In this document: positions 4,940 through 64,000 of the stretch, piece by piece | How the letters are laid out: each line of letters starts with the position of its first letter | Numbering within the stretch: position 1 is the first letter of the stretch | Assembly (NCBI GenBank): GCA_009691445.1 | Contig: SICL01000006.1 | Span: 2,486-66,485 of the forward strand | Source of the DNA: Candidatus Taenariivivens baikalensis | GTDB lineage: Bacteria > Omnitrophota > Omnitrophia > Omnitrophales > Aquincolibacteriaceae | Length of the DNA stretch: 64,000 nucleotides | Direction: 5' to 3' | Notes under the pieces: model-generated | The model's input: only the letters and a program-made list of their open reading frames with translations | Databases searched by the model: none | What the model was told of the DNA's origin: nothing | Made by a program: the position numbers and the translations under genes

Positions 4940-4940
4940 T

Positions 4941-13578: not shown

Positions 13579-13745
13579 GCAGTCGGCAGTAAGCAGTAGC
13601 CAGAAAGCAGTCGGCAGTTAGCAGGAGGCAGTCTGCACTAAGAATATTTTTTGAGATTCGTCTTTTCGAATTAAGTTTTTAATCTTTGTTTTCTGCCTAC
13701 TGCCTCCCTGCCACCTGCCGACTGCTTTCTGCCTACTATTTCTCT
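13579..13745. repeat. Large imperfect hairpin of inverted GGCAGTN heptamer arrays around an AT-rich spacer, just downstream of the GT2 gene and upstream of the giant ORF.
   Basis: ggcagtcggcagtaagcagtagccagaaagcagtcggcagttagcaggaggcagt ... actgcctccctgccacctgccgactgctttctgcctact read directly. Confidence 0.6.
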
Positions 13746-39764: not shown

Positions 39765-39890
39765 TGACCAAGAAACAAGATCCAAGAAACAAACAAAGAG
39801 CCAATCTTTCAATTTTAAAATTTCAATAAATTGTTTTAGATATTGGAATTTGAAGATTCCTTGGTTATTGTATCTTGGTGTTTGGTCATT
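39765..39890. repeat. Intergenic heptamer-array hairpin element (CAAGAWA/CCAAGAW arrays inverted around an AT-rich spacer), copy 1 of 4.
   Basis: tgaccaagaaacaagatccaagaaacaaacaaagag ... cttggttattgtatcttggtgtttggtca. Confidence 0.6.
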
Positions 39891-39960
39891 CTAGTTTGGC
39901 TTTTAAAATCTCAGTTGCTTGGGGTGATCTTCAGTGGTATTCTTCCTAGTGGAGGAAGTG

Positions 39961-40401: not shown

Positions 40402-40496
40402 GTAACATCCGGAATCGAAATCCTTTTTTTCTTTCCCGGCTAGTCCTATTGGGCGCTCAGGTTATCCTTTGAGATTGCTTCGTCGGCTGCGGCCTT

Positions 40497-40533
40497 CTCG
40501 CAATGACGTCATTGCGAGCGGAGCGAAGCAATC
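40497..40533. repeat. Palindromic dispersed repeat ctcgcaatgac|gtcattgcgag followed by cggagcgaagcaatc. Second copy of the element seen at 9395-9420.
   Basis: Read directly; 22-nt perfect palindrome. Confidence 0.5.
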
Positions 40534-40573
40534 TCATCCAAACGCGAAAATTTTAGATCCGTAGGAGATCACG

Positions 40574-41629: not shown

Positions 41630-41643
41630 ATACCAAAAATGTA

Positions 41644-41760
41644 ATAACCAAGATACAAGAAACAAGATACAAATAAAGATACAAAAAAACAATAAACCAA
41701 TCTTTGAATTTTTGAAATCTTGTTATTTATTTGGACACTTGTATCTTGTCTCTTGGTTAT
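41644..41760. repeat. Intergenic heptamer-array hairpin element, copy 2 of 4, between cusB-like and cusA-like genes.
   Basis: ccaagatacaagaaacaagatacaaataaagatac ... tttggacacttgtatcttgtctcttgg. Confidence 0.6.
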
Positions 41761-41773
41761 TCAGGACGTGGTT

Positions 41774-44700
41774 ATGATTGAAAAAATAATTGAATTCTCT
41801 GCTAAAAATAAATTTTTGATCTTTACGCTCACGGCCGTGGCGATTGCCGCAGCGATTTGGTCACTTAAGACTATTCCGCTCGACGCGATTCCGGATCTTT
41901 CTGATACCCAAGTCATTATTTATTCCAAATGGGACCGGAGTCCGGATCTGGTAGAAGCTCAAGTCACTTATCCGATTGTGACATCGCTTTTGGGAGCGCC
42001 GAAAGTCAAAGCGGTGCGGGGGTTCTCGGATTTTGGATTTTCCTATGTCTATGTTATTTTTGACGAGGGAACCGATCTTTACTGGGCGCGCAGCCGCACT
42101 CTGGAATATTTAAGCAAAATCACCTCAAAACTTCCCCAAGGAGTGCAGACGGAACTGGGTCCGGATGCGACGGGTGTGGGCTGGGTCCTGCAATATGCGC
42201 TTTATGATCCCTCCGGAAAACACAGCCTTCAGGAGATCCGGGCGTTTCAGGATTGGAATCTCCGTTATCACCTTCAAAGTGTGCAGGGTGTCGCCGAAGT
42301 TTCTCCGCTCGGAGGTTTTGTGAAGCAGTATCAGGTGGTGGTGGATCCCAGCCGTCTGGCTTTTTATCAGCTCTCGGTGATGGATGTCGTGTCCACGGTC
42401 CGGAAAAGCAATCAGGAAACCGGCGGCGGTTTGCTGGAATTTTCCGGTGCCGAATATATGATCCGCGGCCGAGGTCTGGTGAAGACGATTCCCGACATTG
42501 AAAATAGCGCGATTAAAATGGATACCCGGGGACGGCCCATTTTAGTGAAGCATGTTGCCAAGGTCTCTGCCGGTTCTGAAGTCCGCAGAGGAATCGCGGA
42601 TATGGATGGAAAGGGAGACGTCGTGACCGGGACCGTGGTGATGCGCTCCGGAGAAAACGCGCTCAATGTGATTCGGCGTGTCAAAGAGAGGATCAGGGAG
42701 CTCGAGCCTTCGTTTCCATCGGGAGTGAAATTGAAGATTTTGTATGACCGTTCCGACTTGATTGTCCGGGCGATTGACACGCTGAAGCATCAATTAATCG
42801 AGGAGATGATGATTGTCAGTTTTGTGATTTTAATTTTCCTTTGGCATATTCCATCAGCGATTGTTCCGATTGTGACGATTCCAGTTTCCGTGCTTCTTTC
42901 CTTTATCCTTCTTCATCAGATGAAACTGACATCCAATGTGATGTCGCTTGCCGGGATCGCGATTTCTATCGGTGTATTAGTCGACGGTGCGATTGTAGAA
43001 GTAGAAAATGCGTACAAGCGTTTGGAGGAATGGGAGCATGGAGGCCGCAAAGGAGATTTTCACGAGATCCGCTTGAAGGCGCTCAAAGAAGTCGGGCCGT
43101 CGGTTTTCTTCTCCTTGATCGTGATCGCCGTCGCGTTTATGCCGATTTTCACGCTTGTTGATCAGGCTGGGCGTTTGTTCAAGCCGCTTGCCTGGTCCAA
43201 GAACCTTGCGATGTTCATTGCGGCGATTCTTGCGATTACGCTGGACCCAGCCCTGCGGATGCTTTTTGCGCGCATGGATCCTATCAAGACCCGATGGAGC
43301 TGGCTTTCAAAAACCCTCACGACTCTTTTAGTCGGAAAATATTATCCCGAAGAACAGCATCCAATTAGTAAGCGCCTTTTTCGAATTTATGAACCCGTTT
43401 GCCGCTGGGTGCTTCGTCACCGGAAAACCACGATTGCCGGCGCGCTTCTTTTGATGCTTTCCACGATTCCGGTTTATTTTCGCCTCGGCTCGGAATTCAT
43501 GCCTCCGCTTTATGAAGGAACCATTCTTTACATGCCGACGACGCTTCCGGGAATGTCGGTGACCGAGGCTGGAAAACTTCTTCAAACGCAGGACCGGATC
43601 CTGAAGCAATTTCCGGAAGTGGAAAGTGTTTTTGGGAAAGCGGGACGTATTGACAGCTCAACCGATCCCGCGCCGTTTTCAATGATGGAAACGGTCGTCA
43701 ATCTGAAGCCTGAAAGTGAATGGCGGAAGATTCCCCGCTGGTATTCTTCCATGCCGGAATTCACAAAACCGGTGTTCCGAAAATTCTGGCCGGAACATCT
43801 TGGCTATGAAGCCTTGATTGAAGAGATGAACCAAAAACTTCAGATTCCGGGAACCAGCAATGCCTGGACGATGCCCATCAAAAACCGCCTTGATATGCTG
43901 AGTACCGGCATTCGAACGCCTGTGGGGATCAAGATACTCGGTGCCGACCTCGGCGAAATAGAAAAAATAGGCGCTCACCTGGAAATGATTTTAAAGGATG
44001 TGCCGGGAACACGGAGCGCGTTTGCGGAAAGATCCGCAGGAGGTTATTTCCTCGACTTTGATTTGAAGCGGGATGAGATCGCGCGGTACGGACTTTCCGT
44101 GGAAGAAGTTCAGTCGACGATTATGTCCGCCATTGGCGGCGAAGTGGTCAGTCAAACGCTTGAAGGCCGAGAGCGCTACACGATCAATGTCCGCTATCCC
44201 TTCGAATTGCGGAATGATTTGGAAAAATTAAAGCAGGTTTCAGTGATGTCGTCGCTTGGCTCGATGGTGCCTCTTGGAACTCTTGCGGATCTCCGTCTTA
44301 CCTCGGGGCCTTCCATGATTCGTAATGAGAACGGAATGCTGGCCGGTTATGTATTTGTCGATGTGGCGGGCCGTGATATCGGGCGTTATGTCCGGGATGC
44401 CAGGGACAAAGTGGCTCGTGAACTTAAGCTCCCGGAAAATTATTCCCTGATCTGGAGCGGGCAGTATGAAAATATGCTCAAGGTCCGTGAACGCCTCAAG
44501 GTGATTGTGCCGCTCACGCTTTTTTTGATCGCGCTCATTCTTTATATGAACACCAAGTCCAAGGTTAAAACGGCGATCATTCTTCTGGCGGTTCCGTTTT
44601 CACTCATCGGAGCGGTTTGGCTGCTTTGGATTTTGGGCTACAATATTTCCACCGCGGTCTGGGTGGGGATGATTGCCTTGATGGGCCTTGACGCCGAGAC

Positions 44701-45049
44701 CGGAGTTTTTATGATGCTTTTTCTTGATCTTTCCTATCAGGATGCCGTCCGTAAGGGGCAAATGAAAAATGAAAAGGACCTGGAAGAAGCCGTGATTCAC
44801 GGAGCCGTCAAAAGGATCCGCCCCAAGCTAATGACCGTGATGGCCGCATTTATGGGACTACTTCCCATCATGTGGTCATCAGGCGCCGGAGCGGATATGA
44901 TGAAGCGGATCGCAGCTCCCATGATCGGCGGGCTTATAAGCTCCTTTTTGCTGGAGCTTTTGATCTATCCGGTTTTGTATTCGATGTGGAAATCAAGAGA
45001 ACTAAACCAAGTACCAAATTCCAAACAAATCCCAATCATCGCACCGTAA
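41774..45049 (+). CDS. cusA: CusA/CzcA-family heavy-metal efflux RND transporter. Start moved to the ATG at 41774, downstream of the repeat element.
   Basis: N-terminus MIEKIIEFSAKNKFLIF...IPLDAIPDLSDTQVIIYSKWDRSPDLVEAQVTYPIV and ...ELGPDATGVGWVLQYAL closely follow E. coli CusA. About 1091 aa. Confidence 0.9.
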   Translation: MIEKIIEFSAKNKFLIFTLTAVAIAAAIWSLKTIPLDAIPDLSDTQVIIYSKWDRSPDLVEAQVTYPIVTSLLGAPKVKAVRGFSDFGFSYVYVIFDEGTDLYWARSRTLEYLSKITSKLPQGVQTELGPDATGVGWVLQYALYDPSGKHSLQEIRAFQDWNLRYHLQSVQGVAEVSPLGGFVKQYQVVVDPSRLAFYQLSVMDVVSTVRKSNQETGGGLLEFSGAEYMIRGRGLVKTIPDIENSAIKMDTRGRPILVKHVAKVSAGSEVRRGIADMDGKGDVVTGTVVMRSGENALNVIRRVKERIRELEPSFPSGVKLKILYDRSDLIVRAIDTLKHQLIEEMMIVSFVILIFLWHIPSAIVPIVTIPVSVLLSFILLHQMKLTSNVMSLAGIAISIGVLVDGAIVEVENAYKRLEEWEHGGRKGDFHEIRLKALKEVGPSVFFSLIVIAVAFMPIFTLVDQAGRLFKPLAWSKNLAMFIAAILAITLDPALRMLFARMDPIKTRWSWLSKTLTTLLVGKYYPEEQHPISKRLFRIYEPVCRWVLRHRKTTIAGALLLMLSTIPVYFRLGSEFMPPLYEGTILYMPTTLPGMSVTEAGKLLQTQDRILKQFPEVESVFGKAGRIDSSTDPAPFSMMETVVNLKPESEWRKIPRWYSSMPEFTKPVFRKFWPEHLGYEALIEEMNQKLQIPGTSNAWTMPIKNRLDMLSTGIRTPVGIKILGADLGEIEKIGAHLEMILKDVPGTRSAFAERSAGGYFLDFDLKRDEIARYGLSVEEVQSTIMSAIGGEVVSQTLEGRERYTINVRYPFELRNDLEKLKQVSVMSSLGSMVPLGTLADLRLTSGPSMIRNENGMLAGYVFVDVAGRDIGRYVRDARDKVARELKLPENYSLIWSGQYENMLKVRERLKVIVPLTLFLIALILYMNTKSKVKTAIILLAVPFSLIGAVWLLWILGYNISTAVWVGMIALMGLDAETGVFMMLFLDLSYQDAVRKGQMKNEKDLEEAVIHGAVKRIRPKLMTVMAAFMGLLPIMWSSGAGADMMKRIAAPMIGGLISSFLLELLIYPVLYSMWKSRELNQVPNSKQIPIIAP

Positions 45050-46573: not shown

Positions 46574-48136
46574 ATGAAAGATTCAGAGGTTCAGAAACAA
46601 ACCATTGCGGTGATTGATATCGGCGCCAGTGCGATTCGAATGATTATTGCTGAAGTGGGGCAAAAGGGCGAAATCAATTACCTGGAAAATCTCCACAAGC
46701 CCGTCCGGTTTGGGAAGGAAGTGTTCACCCACGGAATGATTTCGAGTGCGTCGATGCGTGAGGGGATCGGGATTTTGAAAGATTTCAAATCCGTGATCGA
46801 TACTTATGGGGTTAAAACAATTCAAGCGATTGCTACGAGCGCGGTGCGTGAAGCGATGAACCGGGATAACTTTATTGATCAGGTTTATGTGCGTACCGGC
46901 ATTGATGTCGAAGTGATCGAGGGACCGGAAGAAAATCGCCTGGAGTTGATTGCCGTGGAGCATGCGCTCGGAGGCAAGGTCGACCTAGAAAAGAAAAATT
47001 GTCTGATTATCGAAGTCGGGTCCGGCAGTACGGAAATGATTATCCTGAATCAGGGACAGGTGGAGATTACCCGGACGTTGTCGCTTGGATCCATTCGTCT
47101 TCCGGAACAGGCTGTTGCGGGTAAAACCGATCCGGCCGTGATGCAGCGCGTTTTAAAACGCAATGTGCATGAAGTCGTGACGTACGCGGCCAAGGAATAT
47201 AACTTTGATCAGGTGGATACGTTTATCGCGCTTGGCGCAGACATGCGTTTTACGTCTCATCAACTTGTGGAAGGAATTAAAGACAGTTTTGTCATTCTCG
47301 ACAAGAAAGCGTTTGTTGGTTTTCTGAATAAAATTTCCAAGATGACACCGGAAGAAATCGCGACTCAGTACGGAATTTCCTATACCCAGGCGGAAACACT
47401 TTTTCCATCCCTGCTGGTTTATTCCAATTTCATGAATGAGACTAAGACCGAAAGTATTATTGTGCCCATGACAAGCATTCGCGATGGGCTTCTGATTGAA
47501 ATGGCACAAATGCTTTCTGGGAATAAACGGACGGATGTCTCCAAGCAGGTTGTGAATTCTACGCGGCATTTGGGAGAAAAATACAAATATGATAAAGCGC
47601 ATGCGCTTCATGTCGCCTCAACATCTCTCAAGCTTTTTGATGCACTGAAGCAGGATCACGGGATGGGGTCCCGCGAGCGGCTACTCCTGGAAGTTTCAGC
47701 GATCGTGCATGACATCGGCTCTTACATTGCTCCGACAAGTCACCATAAGCATTCTAGCTATCTCGTGGAAGCGGCTGAAATTTTCGGGCTTCGGAAATCC
47801 GACAAAAATATTGTCGCCAATGTTGTTCGCTATCACCGCGGCACGAGTCCGCGCGCCACGCACGTTCCCTATATGTCGCTTCCAAAATCCGACCGGGCAG
47901 TGGTCTCAAAGCTTGCGGCAATTCTTCGGGTAGCGGATGCCCTGGATCATACGCATCAACAGAAAATTAGGAATTTTACGATGGACCGCCAGGAAGATGC
48001 GTACACTCTCTGGGTGCCTGAAGAGACCGGGGATATTACCGTAGAGCGGGATAGTTTGCAGGAAAAGGGTGGCATGTTTTCAGATGTGTACGGCGCTCCA
48101 ATTCAATTGAAGCAGGGGAATCCGATAGCGAAATAG
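46574..48136 (+). CDS. ppx: Ppx/GppA-family exopolyphosphatase with a C-terminal HD domain.
   Basis: VIDIGASAIRMIIAEV and EVGSGSTEMII actin-fold motifs, plus HDIGS HD motif. Adjacent to ppk1. Confidence 0.8.
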   Translation: MKDSEVQKQTIAVIDIGASAIRMIIAEVGQKGEINYLENLHKPVRFGKEVFTHGMISSASMREGIGILKDFKSVIDTYGVKTIQAIATSAVREAMNRDNFIDQVYVRTGIDVEVIEGPEENRLELIAVEHALGGKVDLEKKNCLIIEVGSGSTEMIILNQGQVEITRTLSLGSIRLPEQAVAGKTDPAVMQRVLKRNVHEVVTYAAKEYNFDQVDTFIALGADMRFTSHQLVEGIKDSFVILDKKAFVGFLNKISKMTPEEIATQYGISYTQAETLFPSLLVYSNFMNETKTESIIVPMTSIRDGLLIEMAQMLSGNKRTDVSKQVVNSTRHLGEKYKYDKAHALHVASTSLKLFDALKQDHGMGSRERLLLEVSAIVHDIGSYIAPTSHHKHSSYLVEAAEIFGLRKSDKNIVANVVRYHRGTSPRATHVPYMSLPKSDRAVVSKLAAILRVADALDHTHQQKIRNFTMDRQEDAYTLWVPEETGDITVERDSLQEKGGMFSDVYGAPIQLKQGNPIAK

Positions 48137-48246
48137 GGATGGTTCTCAGGCACGGCCTTAGCAAAGAAAAAGTGGTTTGAACATTTTCAATTATTCTTTC
48201 TTGTTTCAATGGCGGGTGATGCGAACCGTCCCGGGCAGAAAAACTT

Positions 48247-50322
48247 ATGAACGATAAATATTTTGACCGGGAACTCTCCTGGATTGATTTCAATGCCCGT
48301 GTCCTTGGCGAGGCCAGGGATGAGAGTAATCCTCTGCTCGAACGTCTCAAATTCATCGGAATTGTGAGCTCGAACCTGGATGAGTTTTTTATGGTGCGCG
48401 TGGCGAGTCTGAGTGCCACGGATCCCATCTTTAAGGATGTTTATCGACACGCCTTTGATCTCATGGACAGGCAGAATCATTATTTCCAGGAATCCCTGGT
48501 TCCCCAGCTTGAGCATGCGGGGATACGGCGCCTGCTTCCTCAGGGGCTCACGGATAAACAGCGGGACTATCTCGCTGCGCTGTTCCATCATGAAATTTTC
48601 CCGCTCTTGACGCCGGTTGCCATCCGTCCTGAAAATCCTGTACCGGTTTTTGTCAACCAGAGCTTGTACCGAATGGTCGCGCTAGCGGATCCGGTGCGTC
48701 TTAAAGTTAGGCATTATGCGGTGGTGGAGGTTCCTAAAAATTATCCTCGTATGATTGCGCTTCTTAGCGATTCTGGCTATTCCTTTATCACGCTTGAGGA
48801 CGTGATCTCTATGTTTGCAGGGGATCTTTTTACAGGTTATGAAATTCTGGAACAGGGGACTTTCAGAATTACACGTGCATCGGAGCTGAGTGTTGATGAG
48901 GAAAAGGATGAGGACTTTTCAAAGGTTTTAAGTGCAGCCTTATCGCTTCGTCAGCGCAGCCGGATCGTCCGTCTTGAGTACAGCGGGTATGACTTGATGA
49001 GGGATTTTCTGAAAGCCCAGCTCGAGATTTCTGATTTTAAAATTTACGAGGTGAGATCTTGGATGGATCTTAAAACGATTGCCCAGCTTGCTTATCAACC
49101 AACCTTTCCCGAACTTAAGCGGCCTCAGTGGGTGCCCAAGCCCTCGCCTGACTTTGAAAAAGCGGATGATGTCTGGAAGCTGCTTAAGGAAAAAGATGTG
49201 ATGGTTCTTCATCCTTATGAATCTTTTGACGTCTTTTTGCGTTTTTTGGCACAGGCAGCACGTGATCCGGATGTGCTTGCGATCAAACAGACTCTTTACC
49301 GCGCCAGTGAATCTTCCCGTGTGATTCATCTCCTGGAGGAAGCCGCCAACAAAGGTAAGCAGGTGACCGTCCTTGTGGAACTTAAGGCCCGCTTCGATGA
49401 AGAGCGGAATATTGAATGGGCGCACCGGCTTGTGAATGCCGGAGCCAGCGTTCTCTACGGCGTTGCGGGTTTAAAGACCCATGCGAAGGCCTGTCTTGTC
49501 GTGCGCCGGGAACCGGAAGGTATCAAACGTTATCTCCATCTTTCCACCGGAAATTACAACGAAAAAACCGCTTTGATTTATTCCGATATCGGACTTTTTA
49601 CTTCTAAGGAAGATATGACCCGGGACGTGAATGTGTTTTTCAATCTGATCACGGGTCTTTCTCAGCCCACTGGATTTTCCGCCATTGAAATTTCCCCCTT
49701 TGGACTTCGCCGGAAACTCGAAAAACTGATTATGCGCGAGACGCTGCGCGGCACGAAGGAAGCACCCGGACTGATGATGGTTAAGATGAATGCTCTCGTG
49801 GACCCTGACATGATCGACGCGCTTTATAAAGCATCGCAAAAAGGCGTGCAGATCAAACTCAATGTGCGGGGAGTTTGCTGTCTTAAGCCGGGCGTCAAGG
49901 GACTCAGCGATAACATTGAAGTCGTGAGTATTGTGGATACTTTTCTAGAACATAGCCGCGTGTTTTACTTCCATAACGGTGGGGATGAGGAGATTTATCT
50001 TTCCAGTGCAGACTGGATGCCGCGCAATCTGGATCGGCGCCTTGAGATTATGTTCCCCGTGATGGAGGAAAAAAATAAGCGATTTTTGATCGATTTGTTG
50101 AAGCACTACTTTAAGGATAATCAGCGTTCCTGGCAGTTGAATGCGCAGGGCCAGTACAAGAAAAAAGATCCGGGAAGCGAAAAAAAATTTCGCGTTCAGG
50201 AATTCTTGTGTAAGAAGGCCGCGGACAATGCTGCAGCATTATCGGTCGGAGGCAAAGAACTCAAGCCCCAGAAGCCCAAGCTTGAGTCTCCGAAGGATTT
50301 AAAAGAAGAGGTATCGGGTTAA
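48247..50322 (+). CDS. ppk1: Polyphosphate kinase 1.
   Basis: NRELSWIDFNARVL...LERLKFIGIVSSNLDEFF N-terminal signature. 691 aa. Confidence 0.9.
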   Translation: MNDKYFDRELSWIDFNARVLGEARDESNPLLERLKFIGIVSSNLDEFFMVRVASLSATDPIFKDVYRHAFDLMDRQNHYFQESLVPQLEHAGIRRLLPQGLTDKQRDYLAALFHHEIFPLLTPVAIRPENPVPVFVNQSLYRMVALADPVRLKVRHYAVVEVPKNYPRMIALLSDSGYSFITLEDVISMFAGDLFTGYEILEQGTFRITRASELSVDEEKDEDFSKVLSAALSLRQRSRIVRLEYSGYDLMRDFLKAQLEISDFKIYEVRSWMDLKTIAQLAYQPTFPELKRPQWVPKPSPDFEKADDVWKLLKEKDVMVLHPYESFDVFLRFLAQAARDPDVLAIKQTLYRASESSRVIHLLEEAANKGKQVTVLVELKARFDEERNIEWAHRLVNAGASVLYGVAGLKTHAKACLVVRREPEGIKRYLHLSTGNYNEKTALIYSDIGLFTSKEDMTRDVNVFFNLITGLSQPTGFSAIEISPFGLRRKLEKLIMRETLRGTKEAPGLMMVKMNALVDPDMIDALYKASQKGVQIKLNVRGVCCLKPGVKGLSDNIEVVSIVDTFLEHSRVFYFHNGGDEEIYLSSADWMPRNLDRRLEIMFPVMEEKNKRFLIDLLKHYFKDNQRSWQLNAQGQYKKKDPGSEKKFRVQEFLCKKAADNAAALSVGGKELKPQKPKLESPKDLKEEVSG

Positions 50323-53191: not shown

Positions 53192-53322
53192 ATAACCAAG
53201 ATCCAAGAAACAAGTATCCAAATAATAATCAAGCGACAAGATGCAAGTGTCCAAACAGTTTGTCATTTGTAGCTTGCTTCTTGGAGATTTGGTTATTATT
53301 TGGTGTTTGTATCTTGGATCTT
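53192..53322. repeat. Intergenic heptamer-array hairpin element, copy 3 of 4.
   Basis: aaccaagatccaagaaacaagtatccaaataataatcaagcgacaagatgcaag ... cttgcttcttggagatttggttattatttggtgtttgtatcttggatcttg. Confidence 0.6.
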
Positions 53323-55920: not shown

Positions 55921-56838
55921 ATGCCTGAATGCTGGCTGTGGATTGGCTTTAATGTCTTAATTTTTTTTCTGCTTTATCTCGATCTGTTTGTTTTTAATCG
56001 TAACGCTCATGAAATTAAAATTAAGGAAGCCCTGGTCTCGAGTTTAATCTGGATTATCGTCGCCTTAATTTTTAATGCCGGGGTATTTTGGTTTTCAGGA
56101 AAAGAGCACGGTTTTAATTTTTTAACGGGGTACGTGCTAGAACGGTCTTTGAGCATTGACAATCTTTTCGTGTTTTTACTGATTTTTACTTATTTTCAGG
56201 TTCCGGCCCAATATCAGCATAAAATTCTATTCTGGGGAATTTTGGGGACAGTGGTCACTCGAGCTGCTTTCATTCTGGGCGGCATCGCAATCATTGAGCG
56301 TTTTCAGTGGATACTTTATCTTCTTGGTGTTGTTTTAATTTTTTCAGGATTTAAATTACTTAAAGGTGAAGACAAAGAGATGGATCCTGGGAAAAATCCC
56401 GTCTTGAAAGTATTTAAACGGTTTTTTCCAGTGACCACTCAACTGCATGGAGGGAAATTTTTTGTCAGGGAGGAAGGGCGCCTTATGGCGACGCCCCTTT
56501 TTGTGGTGTTACTGGTGATGGAAACAACCGATGTTGTTTTTGCTGTGGACTCGATTCCTGCCATTTTATCCATTACGCGGGATCCGTTTATCGTTTATAG
56601 CTCGAATGTGTTTGCCATTTTGGGGCTTCGGGCCCTTTATTTTGCACTGGCGGGTCTGATGCAGCTTTTTCAGTATTTGAACTACGGACTCGGTGTTATT
56701 TTGATGTTTGTCGGCGTAAAAATGCTGGTTCAGCCTTTTTACCACATCTCTGTTCTTTTTTCACTCGGGGTGATTGTTTCGGTGCTCACTCTTTCGATTA
56801 TTTTTTCTCTCATTTTCCCTAAAAACAAGCAGCATTAA
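55921..56838 (+). CDS. TerC/Alx-family integral membrane protein.
   Basis: Repeated SIDNLFVFLLIF / AVDSIPAI motifs typical of the TerC family. 305 aa. Confidence 0.8.
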   Translation: MPECWLWIGFNVLIFFLLYLDLFVFNRNAHEIKIKEALVSSLIWIIVALIFNAGVFWFSGKEHGFNFLTGYVLERSLSIDNLFVFLLIFTYFQVPAQYQHKILFWGILGTVVTRAAFILGGIAIIERFQWILYLLGVVLIFSGFKLLKGEDKEMDPGKNPVLKVFKRFFPVTTQLHGGKFFVREEGRLMATPLFVVLLVMETTDVVFAVDSIPAILSITRDPFIVYSSNVFAILGLRALYFALAGLMQLFQYLNYGLGVILMFVGVKMLVQPFYHISVLFSLGVIVSVLTLSIIFSLIFPKNKQH

Positions 56839-56851
56839 TCCGGAGATTTTT

Positions 56852-57607
56852 ATGAAATCAAATTTTGCGGCCTCCGCTTTTTTAATGATGTTTCTTTTCT
56901 CCTCAACCTTGAGGGCGGAAGCGCCGGAGCATTTTTATAATGCCAACGAAAATCTGAATCCGGATCCCAAGTACACGCCGGGGGATGTGCCACTGGAAGA
57001 TACCAATAAGGCCCGTTCTTTTTACACCGCGGAACAGCAGGAACTTGCGGCTTCAGGCGACACCGCTTCCGAAGTGCTCTACACACTTGGACACGGCGAG
57101 ATTTCTTTCAGCGCCGTAAAAAATGAAACCGCGAATGTGCTCGGTTTTTTCCGGAATTATTTTGGCGTGGTTAAGATCAAAGACGGAATTCCTGTGGGTT
57201 TGACCATGGTCATTGATATTAATTCCCTGGACACGGCTGTGCCGGGAAGAAATAACCGGATCCTCAATTTGCTTTTCCGGAGTATGACGCCCGAGCTTGG
57301 AACCGCGCGAGTGGAATTTCAGGAGCTGGATTGGGGCGGAAAAAGTTTTGCTGAGGCGGGTGACGGGGCCGTTCACGGGATCAAAGCTTCCGGGACTTTG
57401 GATTTGAACGGTGTCCAAAAACCAATCACGGCCTCTTTGAATCTTCAAAAACAGAAGGGAATCTGGGCGGTTGAAACCGCATCTCCGATTTCCATTCTCA
57501 TTTCCGATTATCAGTTTGAGAACCGGGTGTATGAGCTGATGAAATCTTGTAATCATAAGTCCATCGGTAATCAGGTGGATGTGAAAGTGGAATTGTTCTT
57601 TAAATAA
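56852..57607 (+). CDS. YceI-like domain secreted protein (divergent). Start moved to the internal ATG with a signal peptide.
   Basis: Signal peptide MKSNFAASAFLMMFLFSSTLRA. GTLDLNGVQKPITASLNLQ resembles the YceI G.LT.HGVTKPV segment. Confidence 0.5.
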   Translation: MKSNFAASAFLMMFLFSSTLRAEAPEHFYNANENLNPDPKYTPGDVPLEDTNKARSFYTAEQQELAASGDTASEVLYTLGHGEISFSAVKNETANVLGFFRNYFGVVKIKDGIPVGLTMVIDINSLDTAVPGRNNRILNLLFRSMTPELGTARVEFQELDWGGKSFAEAGDGAVHGIKASGTLDLNGVQKPITASLNLQKQKGIWAVETASPISILISDYQFENRVYELMKSCNHKSIGNQVDVKVELFFK

Positions 57608-57652: not shown

Positions 57653-58573
57653 ATGATCAATGACATTACGGATTTTTTGCGCGCCACCGAAGCCGCGGCC
57701 ATTGCCGCCTCAGAGTGGGTAGGAACCGGCGACAAACTCAATGCGGATAAGGCGGCTACCGATGCAATGCGAGAGCGTCTGAACCGGATTGAATTTGCTG
57801 GCAAGGTCGTTATTGGTGAGGGAAAGAAAGACGAAAGCGCGGGGCTTTTTAATAATGACTGGGTTGGACGGTTTGCTAATCAGAAAATGTCGGATTACTA
57901 CGAGCTTGCTGTTGATCCGATTGATGGAACCCGCCCGACCGTAACTTCCGGCCCGGAAGCTCTGAGCGTTCTTGCCGCTGCCAATGCCGGCTGTATGTTT
58001 ACGACCGAGGAATTTTATATGCACAAGCTTGCCTACGGTCCCTTGATTGCCCATAAAGTAAAACTGAACATCCACGATTCGATCGAAACGATTGTGGAAA
58101 AAGTTTCTAAAGCAACGGGTAAGGCTCCTCATCGAATAGTTGTCTGTCTGCTCGATCGTCCCCGCCACGAAAAATATGTGGCCGTCCTCAGAAAAATGAG
58201 TGTCCGGACAAAATTGATTCAAGACTGCGATATATCAGGCGCGATTGCAACCTGCCTTCCGGAAAGCGGCATTGATCTTCTTTACGGCATTGGCGGAGCT
58301 CCGGAGGCGGTGATTACTGCGGCCGCGATGAAATGTCTTGGCGGTGGATTTCAAGCGCAGATCGTCAATAAAGAGTGCGCGATTTTTCAACCCAAAGTTT
58401 ATGACATTGAAGATTTGGTGAAGGGCGAATGCGCGTTTGCTGCGACAGGGATCACGAATGGCAGTCTCCTCAAAGGTGTCCGTTTTACCAGCCGCGGACC
58501 GGTGACGCACAGTGTGATGATGCGCTCTAAAAGTGGTACCGTTCGGTGGATAACGGCTTATCACGGAAATTAA
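57653..58573 (+). CDS. glpX: Class II fructose-1,6-bisphosphatase (GlpX).
   Basis: ATEAAAIAASEWVGTGDKLNADKAATDAMRERLN, DPIDGTRP and GIGGAPE follow GlpX closely. Confidence 0.85.
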   Translation: MINDITDFLRATEAAAIAASEWVGTGDKLNADKAATDAMRERLNRIEFAGKVVIGEGKKDESAGLFNNDWVGRFANQKMSDYYELAVDPIDGTRPTVTSGPEALSVLAAANAGCMFTTEEFYMHKLAYGPLIAHKVKLNIHDSIETIVEKVSKATGKAPHRIVVCLLDRPRHEKYVAVLRKMSVRTKLIQDCDISGAIATCLPESGIDLLYGIGGAPEAVITAAAMKCLGGGFQAQIVNKECAIFQPKVYDIEDLVKGECAFAATGITNGSLLKGVRFTSRGPVTHSVMMRSKSGTVRWITAYHGN

Positions 58574-58620
58574 TCTGAAATTTTAAAGCGAAACTATAAA
58601 ATTGAAGGCGGAGCATAAAA

Positions 58621-59214
58621 ATGAAATCACGTCTAAGCCTATTGCTGGTAATCGGTTTGCTTTTCTCTCAGCCGGCCTGGGCTGCGGAATATAAACTGGG
58701 CAAGGAACACACGACGGTCGGATTCAAAATTCGTCACTTATTCTCCTGGGTTCAGGGAACGTTTAATGAGTTTGACGGTCAGTTTACCTATGATCCTGAC
58801 AAGCCGGAAACCTGGAAAGTAGATGCTGTGATTCAGGCGAAGAGCATTGATACGCACAATGAAAAACGCGATACGCATTTGAGTTCTGCGGATTTCTTTG
58901 ACGTTGAAAAATTTCCGACGCTGAGTTTTAAAAGTACGGGAGTCCACGATGCGACAAAATCAAATGCCAAACTGGACGGGATTTTAACGCTGCACGGAGT
59001 TGAAAAGCCTGTGACACTGGATCTGGAAATTCACGGAGCCGGTAAAGATCCGTGGGGAAATATGCTTTCGGGATTTACGGCAACCACGAAGATCAATCGC
59101 AAGGATTTCGGACTTTCCTGGAATCAGTCTGTGGAAACTGGACAGCTTTTGGTTGGAGAAGAAGTTTTGATCACGATTGAAGTCGAAGGAGTTTTGCTGG
59201 AAGAAACTAAGTAA
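58621..59214 (+). CDS. YceI-family periplasmic protein.
   Basis: Signal peptide plus LDGILTLHGVEKPVTLDLE and NRKDFGL YceI motifs. Confidence 0.8.
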   Translation: MKSRLSLLLVIGLLFSQPAWAAEYKLGKEHTTVGFKIRHLFSWVQGTFNEFDGQFTYDPDKPETWKVDAVIQAKSIDTHNEKRDTHLSSADFFDVEKFPTLSFKSTGVHDATKSNAKLDGILTLHGVEKPVTLDLEIHGAGKDPWGNMLSGFTATTKINRKDFGLSWNQSVETGQLLVGEEVLITIEVEGVLLEETK

Positions 59215-59254
59215 CCTGAAACTTAAAATTTTAAACGAGTAAAAGGAGAATCTA

Positions 59255-59554
59255 ATGTCGGAATCTCAAAAGACAAAGAAATATGCAATGCTGGCCGCTT
59301 CGATCGCCGGAATTATGGCGGTTTGCGGAACCGTCTCTTTAGCGTATGCGGATGATATGGCGATGGACAGCAAAGACGGAGTGTCCTGCTACGGGGTCAA
59401 TGCCTGCAAAGGTCAGGGCGCTTGCGGCGGCAAAGGTCACGGCTGCGCGGGTGAAAACAGCTGTAAAGGAAAAGGCTGGATCAAAGCGGAAAATAAAGAA
59501 GCTTGCCTGAAAATGGAAGGCGGAAGTTTGAAGCCAACGGCCATCACGGACTAA
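59255..59554 (+). CDS. DUF2282-family Cys-rich precursor peptide (bufferin BufA-like).
   Basis: Signal peptide, then VSCYGVNACKGQGACGGKGHGCAGENSCKG (the CYGV..C..G..C pattern of DUF2282). Immediately upstream of a DUF692 gene. Confidence 0.6.
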   Translation: MSESQKTKKYAMLAASIAGIMAVCGTVSLAYADDMAMDSKDGVSCYGVNACKGQGACGGKGHGCAGENSCKGKGWIKAENKEACLKMEGGSLKPTAITD

Positions 59555-59555
59555 T

Positions 59556-59672
59556 AACCAAACACCAAGAAACAAGATCCAAATAATTCCAAAATTTCAA
59601 TTTTCAATAGGAGTGGGAATTGGATATTGATTATTGGATTTTATTTGGAGCTTGTAACTTGTATCTTGGTTA
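59556..59672. repeat. Intergenic heptamer-array hairpin element, copy 4 of 4, between the precursor peptide gene and the DUF692 gene.
   Basis: aaccaaacaccaagaaacaagatccaaataattccaa ... ttggattttatttggagcttgtaacttgtatcttggtt. Confidence 0.6.
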
Positions 59673-59679
59673 TTAAATT

Positions 59680-61383
59680 ATGTCATTTCCTCTCCTCGGC
59701 TGCGGCATCGGTCTTCGCGCTCCTCACTATGCTGAAATTCTAGGGCCGGCCCGAAAATTGGACTGGTTCGAAGCCATCTCTGAAAATTATATGGATACCG
59801 GAGGGCGTCCCCTCCAGATCCTCGAAAAAATCCGCAAGAACTATCCGGTTGGACTTCACGGGGTTGCACTTTCCGTGGGTTCAACGGATCCGATCCATCT
59901 TCCTTATCTTGAAAAATTAAAAACCTTGATCGACCGCATTGATCCTGCGATTGTCTCCGATCACATTTGCTGGTCGGGCGTGGCCGGTGAACATTTACAC
60001 GACCTCTTGCCCCTTCCTTTCACGGAAGAATCCATCCGCCTGATCGTTGAAAAAACGGACCAGATTCAGAATTTTCTTGGACGTCAGATCCTGCTTGAAA
60101 ATGTTTCGACTTATGTCACGTTCAAACATTCCGAAATGCAGGAATGGGATTTTGTGCGGGAGATCGCAAGGCGGTCCGGCTGTGGACTTCTTCTGGATAT
60201 CAACAATGTTTATGTCAATGCTCGTAATCACGGCTTTGATGCCCAGGAATATCTCCGGAATATTCCCGGAGAGTTTGTGGGACAGATCCATCTTGCTGGG
60301 CACACGGACAAGGGTAAATTTCTTTTTGATACACACAGCTCTCCGGTGATCGATGAGGTTTGGGAACTTTACCGCCAGGCGCTGGAATTGTGGGGAAGCA
60401 AGACGACTCTGATTGAGTGGGATGAGGATATCCCTGAGCTTGAGCGCCTGATTGACGAGTGTGATAAAGCGAGAAAGATTTATCAAAGTGTTCGTGTTGA
60501 ACGTCATTGCGAGGAGTCCCTCAGGGACGACGCGGGAATCTCTGTCAGAAAAGGCGGGATTGCTTCGCTTGCGGCTCGCAATGACATCAAGGTAGAAACA
60601 TCTTTAAAAAACATCCAGCTCTGGATGCAATCTCAAATCAGGGACGGTTCTTCCCAACTTCTGGAAGCGCAACAAGTTACAGAAGAACCGTCCCTGAATC
60701 CCCAGGCCGGGGACCCGGGAGTAGAACGTCTTGACGTTTACCGCGAAGGTTATTTGGCCCGCACCGAAGAATCCCTCAAAGAAGTTTACGAAGCGGTTCG
60801 CCACGTGCTGGGCGACGGCGTGTTTCATGATCTTGCGCATCAGTACGCGCAAAGTTTTTCTTCTCCGGATTTTAATCTTAATCTGAAAGGCCGCAGTCTT
60901 CCGGATTTTTTAAAGCAAACCTCTTGGACTGAAAAGCTTCCATTTCTTCCGGATCTGGCCTGTCTCGAATGGAAAATTGCGGAAGCATTTCATGGTTTTG
61001 ACAAACCTGCTTTTGATCCTTCTTTCCTTTTTCAGTTAAATTCGGAAGATTGGAAAAATCTCCGGATTCTTTTTCAGCCGTCCGTATCGCTTCTGGAATC
61101 TTCCTGGCCCATCCTGGATCTCTGGCAGAGTCGAAAAACTCCTGTGGAGGAAATTAGAATGGATCTTGTGAACCGTCCTCAAAAAGTGTTAGTGGCCCGC
61201 CGCCCCAGCAAAGAAGTTTTTTGCCGTCTTCTTACTGAGCGGGAATTCCGGGTTTTGATTCTTCTGAAGCAGGGTAAATCCCTGGGTGAAATGTTTGAAT
61301 TTTTTGATGAAGAGGAAGCCGATCTTCCTCTGACGGATTGGTTTTCTGCCTGGACGCGGGAAGGCTTGATCGCTTCTTCTTAA
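59680..61383 (+). CDS. Fused DUF692 (MNIO/MbnB-like multinuclear iron oxidase, BufB-like) and DUF2063 (BufC/MbnC-like partner) protein.
   Basis: N-terminal half (LGCGIGLRAPHY...SDHICWSG...HLAGH...IEWDEDIP) matches the DUF692 TIM-barrel family. C-terminal half (LDVYREGYLART...DFNLNLKGRSLPDFL) matches DUF2063. 567 aa. Confidence 0.7.
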   Translation: MSFPLLGCGIGLRAPHYAEILGPARKLDWFEAISENYMDTGGRPLQILEKIRKNYPVGLHGVALSVGSTDPIHLPYLEKLKTLIDRIDPAIVSDHICWSGVAGEHLHDLLPLPFTEESIRLIVEKTDQIQNFLGRQILLENVSTYVTFKHSEMQEWDFVREIARRSGCGLLLDINNVYVNARNHGFDAQEYLRNIPGEFVGQIHLAGHTDKGKFLFDTHSSPVIDEVWELYRQALELWGSKTTLIEWDEDIPELERLIDECDKARKIYQSVRVERHCEESLRDDAGISVRKGGIASLAARNDIKVETSLKNIQLWMQSQIRDGSSQLLEAQQVTEEPSLNPQAGDPGVERLDVYREGYLARTEESLKEVYEAVRHVLGDGVFHDLAHQYAQSFSSPDFNLNLKGRSLPDFLKQTSWTEKLPFLPDLACLEWKIAEAFHGFDKPAFDPSFLFQLNSEDWKNLRILFQPSVSLLESSWPILDLWQSRKTPVEEIRMDLVNRPQKVLVARRPSKEVFCRLLTEREFRVLILLKQGKSLGEMFEFFDEEEADLPLTDWFSAWTREGLIASS

Positions 61384-61587
61384 GTCTCTTCCACTACTTA
61401 CTTCCTAAATCGTTTTACCTGCTCCTGATTTCTGCCTAGGTTTAGCTATCTAATGCTATAAATTGATAGTCAAAACAATACAAAGTTCTATGTTAGTTGA
61501 AATAGTATAAAGCTGAGGGTAACTTTTAATAGGACAGCTGTGCCTAGCCAATAAATAAGTACGCACGTAACCTGAGTTGGAGGAAGT

Positions 61588-64000
61588 TTGAACAGGCTTA
61601 AAACCTATTCAAAAGTGAATCGTCTGACAGCAGCATTCACGGCCGTCATTTTTTTGATCACAAGCTATCCATCGCCGCAGGCACAGGGGATGGAACCTTC
61701 CGCTTCCTTGCCTGCTCCCTCACTCCGAAATATCCTCGAAGACCTAAGCGCGATTCAGCTTCCCAAAGATTTTGGAAAAATTCAGGAAAGCTACCGCGGA
61801 AGCTCCGATAAAGTCGCGGTGCTTGTCCAGGACGCGCACTCCATTCCCGATGCGCAGAGAAACATTCAAAACATCATTGGCTTTTTCCAAAAGGAGTATG
61901 ACGTCTCCTTGGTCGGAGTCGAAGGAACCGCCGCCCAATTGGATCCTCAGATTTTCCACAGTTTCCCGGACCGGAAGAAACTTCGGGAAGTGTTTGAGGA
62001 ATATTACGAGCGCGGGGAATTGACAGGGGGAACCGCGGCTGCGATCTTTAGTCGACAGTCCACAGTCGACAGTCCACAGAAAGAGCACGAGGGTTTAAAC
62101 CGTGGACCGTGGACTATGGACCGTGGACTCGCCTTTGAAGGTCTCGAAGACTGGCCTCTTTACGAGCGCGGTGTTTCCGAATTTTTAAAAGCCCTTAAGG
62201 AGCAAAAAAAACTGAGTGAAGTGTTGGACGGGAAACGTGAAGCGCTCAAGAAAGAAAAGGAGAAATTCTACAGCAAGGAACTTCTGGAAATTGACACAGT
62301 CCTTAATCAGTTTCACAAGAATCAGGGGGATTTGGTTGAGACTGTTAAAGTTCTGGCAAAGTACAAGAAGCCGGAAGGGGAGTTGGGGCTCATTCTGAAG
62401 AAGACAGAAGGCAGTAAGCAGGAGGCAGGAAAGATCGAGTTTGAGGTGAAGAGAATTGCCAGGGAAGTGGAAAAAGCTCTCAAAACATTAAAGTTAGAAG
62501 GGGAAAAAGAAAATTCAAAAACTTCCAACCTCGAATTTCAAGCGAAGAAGCAGCTCTACCAAACCTCTCAATTATCCACCGACGACTATGGACTTTATCT
62601 CAGAGAGACCATCGAGAAGAACCACTTGCCCATCAAGTTATCTCTCCATCTTCACCGAGAAGCGGAAGAAGCCCAGAGACTGAGAGATTTAGAAGGCACC
62701 CGTCTCTTCAAGGATTTTGAACGTTACGGGCAATCGGTCAAAGCCAAGCTTTTCCGAAATGAAAAGGAGAGGATTCTGGATCAGGAAAATCATGAGATGG
62801 AGCTGCTCACTCGCTTTGCGAGTCTGGAGCTGAGCCAGGAGGATTGGGAGGAGGTTAAAAGGTTAAAAAGTGAAAAAGTTAAAAAGTTGGGAGACGAAAA
62901 CTTTTTGACCTTTAAACTTTTGAACTTTTCAACGCATTTTAACTTTTATGAAATCGCCGAACAGCGCGACACCAGCCTTTTTAAAAATACGCTCGCGCTA
63001 ATGAAATCCCATCAAGTCAAAAGCTCTTTAGTGATTGCCGGAGGATTTCACGCCGAAGGACTGACGCAAAAACTCAAGGCCAACGGCATTTCCTATGTGC
63101 TGGTGATGCCGGAAATTAAAACTATGCCGGAGCATTCTCTTTATTTGGAGCACATGAAGGGGAATGTGTCGTGGAAGAATTATTTTGAGGTGAAGGATGG
63201 GAAAGTAAATCTTTATGAGGCGTTTGTGAGAAGCAGCCGCGACCGACTGCTGAAGTTAGAAGCTAGAAGTGGGAAGTTGGAAGAACGAAATCAAAAAGCA
63301 TCTCCCTTCGAACTTCAAACTTTGAACTTCCAACTCGCGAAGCTGTGGAGAGACCAAATCATCCGTGACCTCGCTGCGAAGAATGAACTCACCAAAGCCC
63401 ACGATTACACAAGATTCATTGATGAACTTAGCAAAGAGCATAGCGCAGACCTGCCCGCCGAAGCGAAGCGGCAGGCGGGGAGCAAAGGGTCTGAAAACTC
63501 TATGCCCTATGCTCTTAGCTCACTGCTTCGTCAGCAGTGGCTCTCAAACATTCACCGCTTCATCGACGGCCTGAAAAATCTAAAATCCCGCGGTGAAATG
63601 GATATCCCGAACGTCACACAGCTTCTCAACTCTTTTTCCACCGCCGCGCCCGCTCTCGCCGGAGCACTTTCGAATCAATGGGTTGCTGGGTGGATTTTAG
63701 GTTTTGAAGAAAAACGTTCCGAAGTAAGAACGAACCCCTCCGAACCGGACGGCGCGCGGTCAGTGTCCAAGCTTCACTCTTCAACCTTCACTCCTAACTC
63801 ATCTTCCCGCTCCGAAGCGCGCTCGCAGAATGCTGAACCCAGTCAGGGGACGATCCCTGCCGGGGACAGACCCCGGGATCTCACGGAGATTAATGCGAGG
63901 TACGGAAGCAAAGGGTTGGATAAAATCCTGGCCGCCATCCGGAAGATCTATCTTTCAAATGGTTATTCCGATACTGAATTTAACCCGTATCTTGCCTTGA
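61588..64000 (+). CDS. Start of a second large secreted protein, truncated by the window edge and paralogous to the N-terminal Tiki/TraB-like region of the giant ORF. Putative TTG start at 61588; exact start is uncertain.
   Basis: Manual translation gives a signal-peptide-like N-terminus, VLVQDAHS...VGVEGTA and SLVIAGGFHAEG (matching IIHIQEAHGN...LLEGTA and VVVITGGFHSKP in the giant ORF). It has RSEVR and RSEAR motifs near 63715 and 63805. No stop is seen before the window end. Confidence 0.6.
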   Translation, partial: MNRLKTYSKVNRLTAAFTAVIFLITSYPSPQAQGMEPSASLPAPSLRNILEDLSAIQLPKDFGKIQESYRGSSDKVAVLVQDAHSIPDAQRNIQNIIGFFQKEYDVSLVGVEGTAAQLDPQIFHSFPDRKKLREVFEEYYERGELTGGTAAAIFSRQSTVDSPQKEHEGLNRGPWTMDRGLAFEGLEDWPLYERGVSEFLKALKEQKKLSEVLDGKREALKKEKEKFYSKELLEIDTVLNQFHKNQGDLVETVKVLAKYKKPEGELGLILKKTEGSKQEAGKIEFEVKRIAREVEKALKTLKLEGEKENSKTSNLEFQAKKQLYQTSQLSTDDYGLYLRETIEKNHLPIKLSLHLHREAEEAQRLRDLEGTRLFKDFERYGQSVKAKLFRNEKERILDQENHEMELLTRFASLELSQEDWEEVKRLKSEKVKKLGDENFLTFKLLNFSTHFNFYEIAEQRDTSLFKNTLALMKSHQVKSSLVIAGGFHAEGLTQKLKANGISYVLVMPEIKTMPEHSLYLEHMKGNVSWKNYFEVKDGKVNLYEAFVRSSRDRLLKLEARSGKLEERNQKASPFELQTLNFQLAKLWRDQIIRDLAAKNELTKAHDYTRFIDELSKEHSADLPAEAKRQAGSKGSENSMPYALSSLLRQQWLSNIHRFIDGLKNLKSRGEMDIPNVTQLLNSFSTAAPALAGALSNQWVAGWILGFEEKRSEVRTNPSEPDGARSVSKLHSSTFTPNSSSRSEARSQNAEPSQGTIPAGDRPRDLTEINARYGSKGLDKILAAIRKIYLSNGYSDTEFNPYLAL
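62050..62130. repeat. In-frame heptamer-array hairpin (AGTCSAC arrays inverted) inside the second large gene.
   Basis: agtcgacagtccacagtcgacagtccacag ... ccgtggaccgtggactatggaccgtggactc. Confidence 0.5.
62854..62935. repeat. In-frame heptamer-array hairpin-like element (AAAAGTT / AACTTTT) inside the second large gene.
   Basis: ggttaaaaagtgaaaaagttaaaaagttggg ... cctttaaacttttgaacttttcaacg. Arms are imperfectly complementary. Confidence 0.4.
63251..63340. repeat. In-frame heptamer-array hairpin-like element (GAAGTNN / NNACTTC) inside the second large gene.
   Basis: gaagttagaagctagaagtgggaagttggaagaacg ... cccttcgaacttcaaactttgaacttccaactcgcg. Confidence 0.45.

Follow-up and report, generated by a model that had tools for sequence, protein, structure and literature searches.

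What kind of bufferin system is encoded where the maturation enzyme and its partner protein are a single polypeptide, and what does a long palindromic repeat do that fills the space between the precursor and enzyme genes? Both questions are raised by a stretch of 64,000 nt (the window) of Candidatus Taenariivivens baikalensis, taken from a metagenome-assembled genome (MAG; contig SICL01000006.1 of assembly GCA_009691445.1). The locus is very probably a three-gene module, yceI–bufA2–bufBC, that encodes a Buf2-type bufferin, expected to be a ribosomal copper-binding peptide of the periplasm, and a fused maturase, and has a repeat-filled spacer for which a translational role is proposed. It is a variant of the known Buf2 system, distinguished by a maturase that is naturally a single chain, by yceI as a conserved partner and by the repeat-filled spacer. 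The coordinates are collected in Table 1. Related genome loci used for comparison are numbered with the prefix L; L001–L013 come from contigs of one genome per species, and others are metagenome loci.

The precursor and the single-chain maturase

The product of bufA2 matches the NCBIfam BufA2 model NF050166 with 61.4 bits, narrowly above the cutoff of 60. A preliminary description of this DNA had taken the precursor to be of the DUF2282 type. This has to be given up: the Pfam model for DUF2282 (PF10048) does not match the protein even at E ≤ 10, and neither does any other Pfam model. Since the precursor reaches the BufA2 model and misses PF10048, the cluster is of the Buf2 type and not of the Buf1/DUF2282 type. 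A DUF2282/BufA1 (Buf1) identity was ruled out on that missing match together with the presence of six core cysteines instead of four. The BufA2 and DUF2282 families border each other, because about half of 170 precursor homologues carry a precomputed PF10048 mark; where its grade is recorded, the mark is weak for P0122 and unmarked (E ≤ 1e-5) for P0124.

The description of the precursor as a cysteine-rich protein with a signal peptide is borne out. By inspection, residues 1–32 are predicted to form a Sec signal peptide, with the basic residues K6, K8 and K9 (KTKK), a hydrophobic segment from 11 to 29, and A30–Y31–A32 preceding D33. AYA|DD is a standard predicted signal-peptidase I site, and its AxA is conserved among the aligned relatives. 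The predicted core (residues 33–99) holds six of the seven cysteines of the whole precursor, namely Cys45, 51, 57, 64, 70 and 84. This six-cysteine pattern and the motif C.G.NACKG.G.CGG.G..CAG.N.CKG recur in the precursors of L002–L012, and a BufA2 precursor is encoded 5′ of every fused Omnitrophota-type enzyme compared. Cys24 lies inside the signal peptide; a lipoprotein signal at this position was ruled out, as there is no lipobox and Cys24 is not conserved. A sequence search of the PDB with the precursor returned nothing meaningful.

Directly 3′ of the precursor gene a DUF692 (MNIO) protein and a DUF2063 protein had been described as fused in one open reading frame (ORF) of 567 aa, and the Pfam scan finds both domains there. 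Residues 8–268 match PF05114, the MNIO family of MbnB, TglH and ChrH, with 360.5 bits (cutoff 25), and residues 312–411 match PF09836 (DUF2063) with 51.5 bits (cutoff 27.2). The N-terminal half of BufBC also passes the MNIO_BufB equivalog model NF050167 (374.6 bits, cutoff 310), while the HvfC model covers residues 340–537 below its cutoff (25.9 against 142). The partner half has the make-up of a PME-type-1 protein, DUF2063 and then a full RRE-like domain, together about 250–260 residues. A PDB sequence search with the C-terminal half returned nothing meaningful. The ATG at 59680 is the first start past the in-frame TAA at 59674–59676, and in the sequence read there is no alternative start before the conserved GCG.GLR motif of bufBC. 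BufBC and the precursor are each 100% identical to Omnitrophica MAG entries at NCBI, where such fused proteins are named ‘MNIO family bufferin maturase’.

The AlphaFold2 model of BufBC, based upon 108 homologues, has a mean predicted local distance difference test score (pLDDT) of 92 and a predicted template-modelling score of 0.90. The tail (residues 412–567) is well folded, and the linker is the sole poorly defined stretch, with pLDDT < 50 at 288–296 and 49–73 across 271–310. In a Foldseek search the N-terminal half is matched to the DUF692 structure 3bww with a template-modelling (TM) score of 0.90, to MbnB (7dz9; TM 0.85) and to TglH (8hi7_B; TM 0.76), and for the C-terminal half the match is 8hi7_A, the partner chain TglI (E = 1e-5). 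Ten His, Asp, Glu and Asn residues (H60, D94, H95, E140, D173, N176, H204, D217, H219 and E246) are typical of the MNIO metal site. They are invariant in 108/108 fused homologues and fall on motifs that MbnB and 3bww conserve, and judged by these alignments the MNIO half keeps all of the conserved metal-binding residues. The maturase as modelled is a BufB-type MNIO that is joined to a DUF2063 plus RRE partner via a linker of ~40 residues, predicted to be disordered.

The DNA of the linker (60503–60585) aligns with an intergenic palindromic repeat at 40466–40540. It is flanked by an 11-nt perfect inverted repeat, and the same motif is present at 40498–40517 and 9395–9404, both intergenic. The stretch encoded by the repeat, residues 275–302, is the disordered part. 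The short palindromic repeat, with the core GTCATTGCGAG...GCGAAGCAATC / GATTGCTTCGC...CTCGCAATGAC, occurs between genes at 40466–40540 and 9340–9430, and in frame within the BufBC linker. The linkers of the homologues vary greatly in length and sequence, so that the alignment has 771 columns for about 570 residues, and the flexible linker seems able to accommodate repeats that insert in frame. Peptide motifs in homologue linkers (RND, IAS and SRFRGND) may represent translations of similar repeats.

Distribution and precedents of the fusion

Fusion is the normal state in a large clade of Omnitrophota and not a one-off. Both Pfam domains are present in 120/120 of the best protein homologues (512–625 aa, 48–57% identical), and in L001–L010 and L012 the enzyme is one ORF of 560–617 aa (lengths taken from the earliest possible start; L011 ends at a contig edge). 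With about 30 metagenome loci included, some 40 Omnitrophota-type loci have this form. In Acidobacteriota, Nitrospirales, Binatia and others a BufB of ~285 aa is followed by a separate, usually overlapping bufC. On a neighbour-joining tree of the MNIO domain about 45 Omnitrophota-type sequences form one clade, almost all of them fused, and the sister of this clade is an unfused group that is partly linked to yceI. Elsewhere in the tree there is a second clade, all fused and only ~35% identical, with about 22 alphaproteobacterial sequences (MAGs of Micavibrio and Rickettsiales). Because the two fused clades are separate there, the fusion has arisen at least twice independently. L129 is a third, isolated case.

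The alphaproteobacterial fused enzyme passes the BufB cutoff, and 12 of the 13 loci examined have a candidate precursor, a distinct signal-peptide protein with Cys/Lys repeats. These precursors contain 6–11 cysteines in repeats of the SCKGK/SCKD type, and no NCBIfam model matched them. The alphaproteobacterial fused loci are L014, L017–L027, L034, L035, L040, L113–L116 and L123 (about 4001–5650 in each).

It is hardly credible that the 567-aa ORF is an artefact, in which an error of assembly or sequencing hides a stop codon or frameshift between bufB and bufC. The window does stem from a MAG, and in the unfused relatives L013 and L037 bufB and bufC overlap by a few bases, so that one indel could join them. 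Against this, the same single ORF is found in independent assemblies from many samples, at 47–57% protein identity and with linkers of variable length, and the linker here is about 40 residues instead of a short overlap. A missed stop was rejected on these comparative grounds, including the two domains in all 120 homologues and the single ORF in L001–L010 and L012, and the assignments to DUF692 and DUF2063 made at the outset are supported by hidden Markov models.

One DUF692–DUF2063 architecture in Pfam was already mentioned in a structure paper of 2009 (PMC2954202). Beyond this, the literature searched for a natural fusion of MNIO and DUF2063 yielded MovX and ChrH, to which an RRE or extra domains are fused, and an engineered HvfBC fusion; natural B–C fusions are not discussed in the bufferin surveys or the MNIO work searched, the 2024 MNIO review (PMC11806912) lying outside the search.

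The closest characterized system is Buf2 of Caulobacter vibrioides (bufA2–bufB2–bufC2, CCNA_03001–02999; PMC11626156, PMC12452194), which has in common with the window a Sec signal, six cysteines, the gene order A–B–C, a BufB-type MNIO preceding DUF2063 plus RRE, and no doxX. The window differs in having B and C as one polypeptide with a disordered linker, in the conserved upstream yceI, in the lack of a nearby SigF/NrsF-type regulator, and in the 124-nt palindromic repeat that parts A from BC. A fusion of HvfB and HvfC was engineered because the two proteins bind weakly, and it is more active than the co-expressed pair (bioRxiv 10.64898/2026.07.17.739211). As in BufBC, the C terminus of the MNIO is joined to the N terminus of a PME-type-1 partner and a 1:1 ratio is enforced; the engineered protein is artificial and linker-free and acts with an EGKCG-repeat oxazolin precursor, whereas BufBC is natural, has a linker of ~40 residues and goes with a BufA2 precursor. 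MbnBC and TglHI (PDB 7dz9, 7fc0, 7tcr and 8hi7) have the same MNIO TIM barrel as the N-terminal half of BufBC (TM 0.76–0.85), and the C-terminal half matches TglI. Unlike BufBC these are two-chain complexes, with ~20% sequence identity, and their substrates have leader peptides without signal peptides.

The spacer hairpin and its relatives

A heptamer-array hairpin had been placed between the stop codon of the precursor and the start of the enzyme gene, over the ribosome-binding region, and it is found there. The element takes in the bufA2 stop codon TAA and stops 4 nt short of the bufBC ATG. Its inverted repeat (59552–59608 and 59619–59675) has arms of 57 nt that are 72% complementary and have a period of 7 nt (identity at lag 7 is 0.52, against 0.31 at other lags). 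On folding it gives −42.5 kcal/mol (z = −5.6), with 0/200 shuffles as stable. The stem is long and nearly continuous with about 45 paired positions, although AU-rich (28% GC) and with many mismatches, and the bufA2 stop codon is paired in its base. On reading the sequence, no purine-rich Shine–Dalgarno-like motif was seen before the bufBC ATG outside the stem. No intrinsic terminator was called at 59552–59679, where there is no T-run and the stem of 28% GC is followed by AAATTATG. A promoter and terminator scan of 58500–61700 gave counts at chance level and nothing at the hairpin, and an Rfam search of the whole window likewise gave nothing there.

The hairpin is not specific to this operon, but belongs to a dispersed element with four copies in the window. 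A pattern built upon its termini has five matches at four sites in the window (including 59565–59669), against 0 expected. The terminal ~25 pairs are common to the four copies and the interiors vary. The pattern has no match in 80 related genome loci. REP/BIME, ERIC and the Correia elements of Neisseria are dispersed palindromic intergenic repeats. The element resembles them in its length of ~110–140 nt, its several copies, its conserved inverted termini and variable interior, its presence in spacers within operons and the hairpin expected in the mRNA. It differs from them in that its arms are tandem heptamers, that no target-site duplication is visible at the four copies, and that unrelated heptamers occupy the orthologous sites in sister genomes. 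Tandem heptanucleotide arrays are known as the TAACTGA repeats of marine Beggiatoaceae (PMC4679880) and as four-heptamer elements in Geobacter metallireducens (PMC2700814). Like the arrays of the window these have a 7-nt unit in 2–8 copies, are intergenic or sometimes intragenic, and often end just 5′ of a start codon; they are mostly direct arrays with one fixed heptamer per genome, whereas in the window two inverted arrays make a hairpin and the heptamer is specific to the site.

Further hairpins of two inverted heptamer arrays are located at 7086–7165, 13572–13737, 14741–14822, 15133–15202 and 15372–15506, with z down to −15.6. The heptamer differs in each (AAGAGGG/TCTTCCT, GCAGTAG/CTGCCTA and others), and four of them cluster within ~2 kb 5′ of a giant plus-strand ORF of up to 8182 aa (13875–38423), the true start of which is probably past the hairpin cluster, near 15.5 kb. 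Hairpin arrays of heptamers or octamers also occur at 62050–62128, 62854–62933 and 63306–63335, inside a plus-strand ORF that runs from 61576 to beyond 64000 (>808 aa, no family match); this stays open through all three arrays, yielding peptide inserts such as SRQSTVDSPQKEHEGLNRGPWTMDRGL. Because of their indels, most of the heptamer hairpins were missed when the window was scanned for ungapped inverted repeats. More puzzling than anything else in the window is this family of heptamer-array hairpins, which reaches past the bufferin locus.

In the closest relatives, L081 and L083, the precursor is 73% and 66% identical and the enzyme 78–81% (over the MNIO part; both contigs end before the B–C junction, so that fusion cannot be scored there). 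Their bufA2–bufBC spacers of 87 and 132 nt are filled from end to end by a heptamer-array hairpin. The heptamers are unrelated (TTCGTAT in L081, CTAAATC in L083 and ACCAAGA in the window), and those of L081 and L083 occur in the window at chance level. Other strong hairpins are present in the spacers of L008 (z = −6.5) and L010 (z = −7.7), and a GC-rich stem-loop in that of L001. Over all phyla, z ≤ −3 is reached by 37/62 of the bufA–bufB spacers with a length of 40 nt or more, against 6/22 of the yceI–bufA2 spacers taken as matched controls (Fisher p = 0.013; z-scores are from mononucleotide shuffles, and some loci are duplicated between collections). Many of these structured spacers are perfect GC stems of 12–18 bp right past the stop codon, some with T-runs. 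Heptamer-periodic hairpins (of the GGTGACT type) are present in the bufA2–bufB spacers of the Binatia-type unfused loci L029 and L125, so that a heptamer hairpin in this spacer is not confined to Omnitrophota.

Gene neighbourhood, proposed mechanism and alternatives

The product of yceI, the first gene of the module, scores 177 bits with the NCBIfam YceI model, under the equivalog cutoff of 232. A YceI homologue is directly 5′ of bufA2 in all of L001–L013 and in most of the fused metagenome loci. According to a bufferin survey of 2025 the usual companions are doxX, sigma and anti-sigma genes, doxX being the core accessory gene; in the portions of the survey consulted YceI has one mention, in a supplementary legend, and Omnitrophota are absent from the text and the supplements examined. 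There is no doxX 3′ of bufBC; the gene that follows begins near 61576 and matches no family.

A copper context had also been read from YceI genes and a cus cluster nearby. The first part stands, with a second YceI gene at 56774–57607 beside the adjoining, conserved one. The RND pump matches the CusA/CzcA family with 1049.7 bits (cutoff 701), at the level of the family only, and the cus/czc cluster is loose context because it lies ~14 kb from the bufferin genes, not adjacent to them, with a metal assigned no further than CusA/CzcA. Genes for a Ppx/GppA plus HD exopolyphosphatase and a polyphosphate kinase adjoin at 46574–50322, just 3′ of the pump. Polyphosphate is a known metal buffer, and these genes may be related context. 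The sole Rfam match in the window is a c-di-AMP riboswitch (RF00379) at 9090–9282, with 54.2 bits against a gathering score of 38.

Table 1. Coordinates of the bufferin module, its parts and associated features in the window
Feature	Coordinates	Strand	Basis and remarks
yceI (periplasmic lipocalin-like YceI family)	58621..59214	+	PF04264, 172.7 bits; first gene of module
Shine–Dalgarno-like AAGGAG	59243..59248	+	read from sequence; 6 nt 5′ of bufA2 ATG
bufA2 precursor, 99 aa	59255..59554	+	NF050166 BufA2 match; no Pfam match
Heptamer-array hairpin element, dispersed palindromic repeat, 124 nt	59552..59675	.	inverted repeat, folding
bufBC, single-chain bufferin maturase, 567 aa	59680..61383	+	NF050167, PF05114, PF09836
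MNIO (BufB) TIM-barrel domain, residues 8–268	59701..60483	+	PF05114; Foldseek
Interdomain linker part, about residues 275–302	60503..60585	+	palindromic repeat GTCATTGCGAG ... CTCGCAATGAC
PME-type-1 partner: DUF2063 (312–411) and RRE-like C-terminal domain (412–567)	60613..61380	+	PF09836, Foldseek
Hairpin element copy 2	39768..39878	.	termini pattern; 5′ of ORF 39934–40401
Hairpin element copy 3	41648..41756	.	between adaptor and CusA/CzcA RND genes; z = −6.2
Hairpin element copy 4	53196..53317	.	in 592-nt spacer between minus-strand genes; z = −12.9
CusA/CzcA-type RND pump and CusB/CzcB-like adaptor with heavy-metal-binding domain	40574–45049		family scans

In Caulobacter Buf2 each of the four central cysteines loses 4 Da, and the first and the last one are left unmodified; a 1:1 complex with copper is formed by bufferin 1, cleavage of the signal peptide is described, and both Buf1 and Buf2 are copper-induced and protective (PMC11626156). 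HvfC is required for the active mixed-valent iron state (bioRxiv 10.64898/2026.07.17.739211). By analogy, the partner half of BufBC would dock the precursor and enable the active iron state, and the MNIO half would convert the central Cys51, 57, 64 and 70 to thiooxazoles in the cytoplasm. A disulfide between Cys45 and Cys84 would form after Sec export and cleavage at AYA|DD, and the matured periplasmic peptide would bind copper 1:1. The fusion would fix a 1:1 ratio of enzyme to partner in a permanent complex.

The spacer RNA is proposed to fold as one long hairpin, in which the bufA2 stop codon would sit opposite the buried start region of bufBC. A ribosome terminating at that stop would melt the base of the stem and open the sequestered bufBC start, and the hairpin would keep stop and start next to each other across the intervening 125 nt. 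An element that extends from the stop codon until 4 nt short of the ATG, with no Shine–Dalgarno sequence outside the stem, can hardly leave the translation of bufBC unaffected. That translation of bufBC is low, and dependent on ribosomes finishing bufA2 or on processing of the RNase III type, has a likelihood that we put somewhat below even. The effect of the spacer would be much precursor and little enzyme. As a bufferin is a stoichiometric 1:1 chelator the precursor is needed in far greater amount than the enzyme, and a role of the hairpin in the precursor-to-enzyme ratio is plausible; any reading of the spacer other than a neutral one would serve this need. A stronger version is speculative, and we think it unlikely to hold: the spacer would be a conserved structural slot, in which an inverted-heptamer-array hairpin always reaches from stop to start and ties initiation on bufBC, at a fixed and low ratio, to termination on bufA2. 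From one sister genome to another its heptamers would be replaced as a whole by some unknown process of copying or homogenization, which also seeds hairpins in other spacers and, in frame, in coding regions including protein linkers.

A number of observations count against the interpretation of the locus given here. The precursor exceeds the BufA2 cutoff by 1.4 bits only, and the RRE-type C-terminal part falls short of the HvfC cutoff; the presumed specificity for copper is carried over from Caulobacter. The unfused L013, L109 and L111 nest within the fused Omnitrophota-type clade, so that the history of the fusion is one of fissions or several fusions and not a single clean event. Omnitrophota-type bufA2–bufBC spacers are often unstructured and only 7–56 nt in length, and since many orthologous fused loci have such spacers without a hairpin, it is not required by the system. 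Within the Omnitrophota-type loci alone the enrichment of structure is not significant (9/19 against 6/22 controls, p = 0.21), and about half of the longer intergenic regions of the window are structured. Copy 4, in the same orientation between minus-strand genes, fits a spread that is blind to function.

The hairpin could therefore be a selfish or neutral dispersed palindromic element, MITE-like (miniature inverted-repeat transposable element) or REP-like, that came to lie in a permissive spacer and plays no part in the expression of the bufferin. This is a real possibility, although on balance we doubt it. It would fit the four copies with conserved termini within 64 kb in unrelated contexts, including that between minus-strand genes, the zero matches in the 80 related loci and the short spacers without a hairpin at most orthologous sites. 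The yceI–bufA2 spacers of L081 and L083 also often carry hairpins, and the window has many other heptamer hairpins. A neutral element does not readily explain the exact fit from the stop codon to 4 nt before an ATG that has no Shine–Dalgarno sequence outside the stem, the filling of the same spacer by hairpins of different sequence in three sister genomes, or the enrichment of stable stems at the bufA–bufB junction across phyla (p = 0.013). REP, ERIC and Correia elements, and hairpins past the precursor genes of other operons for peptides made on ribosomes and modified after translation (RiPPs), have been described as acting on transcripts. The hairpin might do the same, as a leaky terminator or a barrier to RNase III or a 3′-exonuclease, leaving a stable bufA2 and a short-lived bufBC message. 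The length and near continuity of its stem, with about 45 paired positions, would suit such a barrier, as would the perfect GC-rich stems of 12–18 bp found there in other phyla, some with T-runs (L154, L077 and L001), and the excess of precursor over enzyme that a 1:1 chelator should need. With no T-run and no terminator call at the hairpin, and an AU-rich stem (28% GC) containing many mismatches, we regard action on the transcript as rather unlikely.

It is improbable that the module as a whole is not primarily for copper defence and acts instead on another metal, or in periplasmic redox chemistry or lipid peroxidation. As neighbour yceI is conserved, and next to the module there is no gene for DoxX, sigma/anti-sigma factors or a copper sensor. 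YceI/BcnA lipocalins have been linked to the detoxification of lipid peroxyl radicals (PMC9113575), and MerC–bufferin fusions suggest other metals for some bufferins. The RND pump for heavy metals, 14 kb distant, matches only the CusA/CzcA family. The copper reading of the module draws on an MNIO that passes the BufB equivalog cutoff, on a precursor that keeps the cysteine pattern of Buf2, and on the copper induction and protective effect of Buf1 and Buf2 in Caulobacter.

The fusion is more useful than it is surprising. Among the peptides made by MNIO enzymes bufferins are the largest group, and their enzymology is hampered by the weak complexes of BufB or HvfB with their partners; natural single-chain BufBC proteins are ready-made versions, tested by evolution, for structural and mechanistic work. 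In the manner of a ‘Rosetta stone’, the natural fusions also give independent evidence for joint action of the two proteins as a unit. As a genome feature the heptamer-array hairpins still lack an explanation and merit separate study. The recurrent hairpin past the precursor gene suggests how cells get much chelator peptide and little enzyme, and the conservation of yceI as a partner suggests a connection, as yet unexplored, of bufferins with periplasmic lipocalins.

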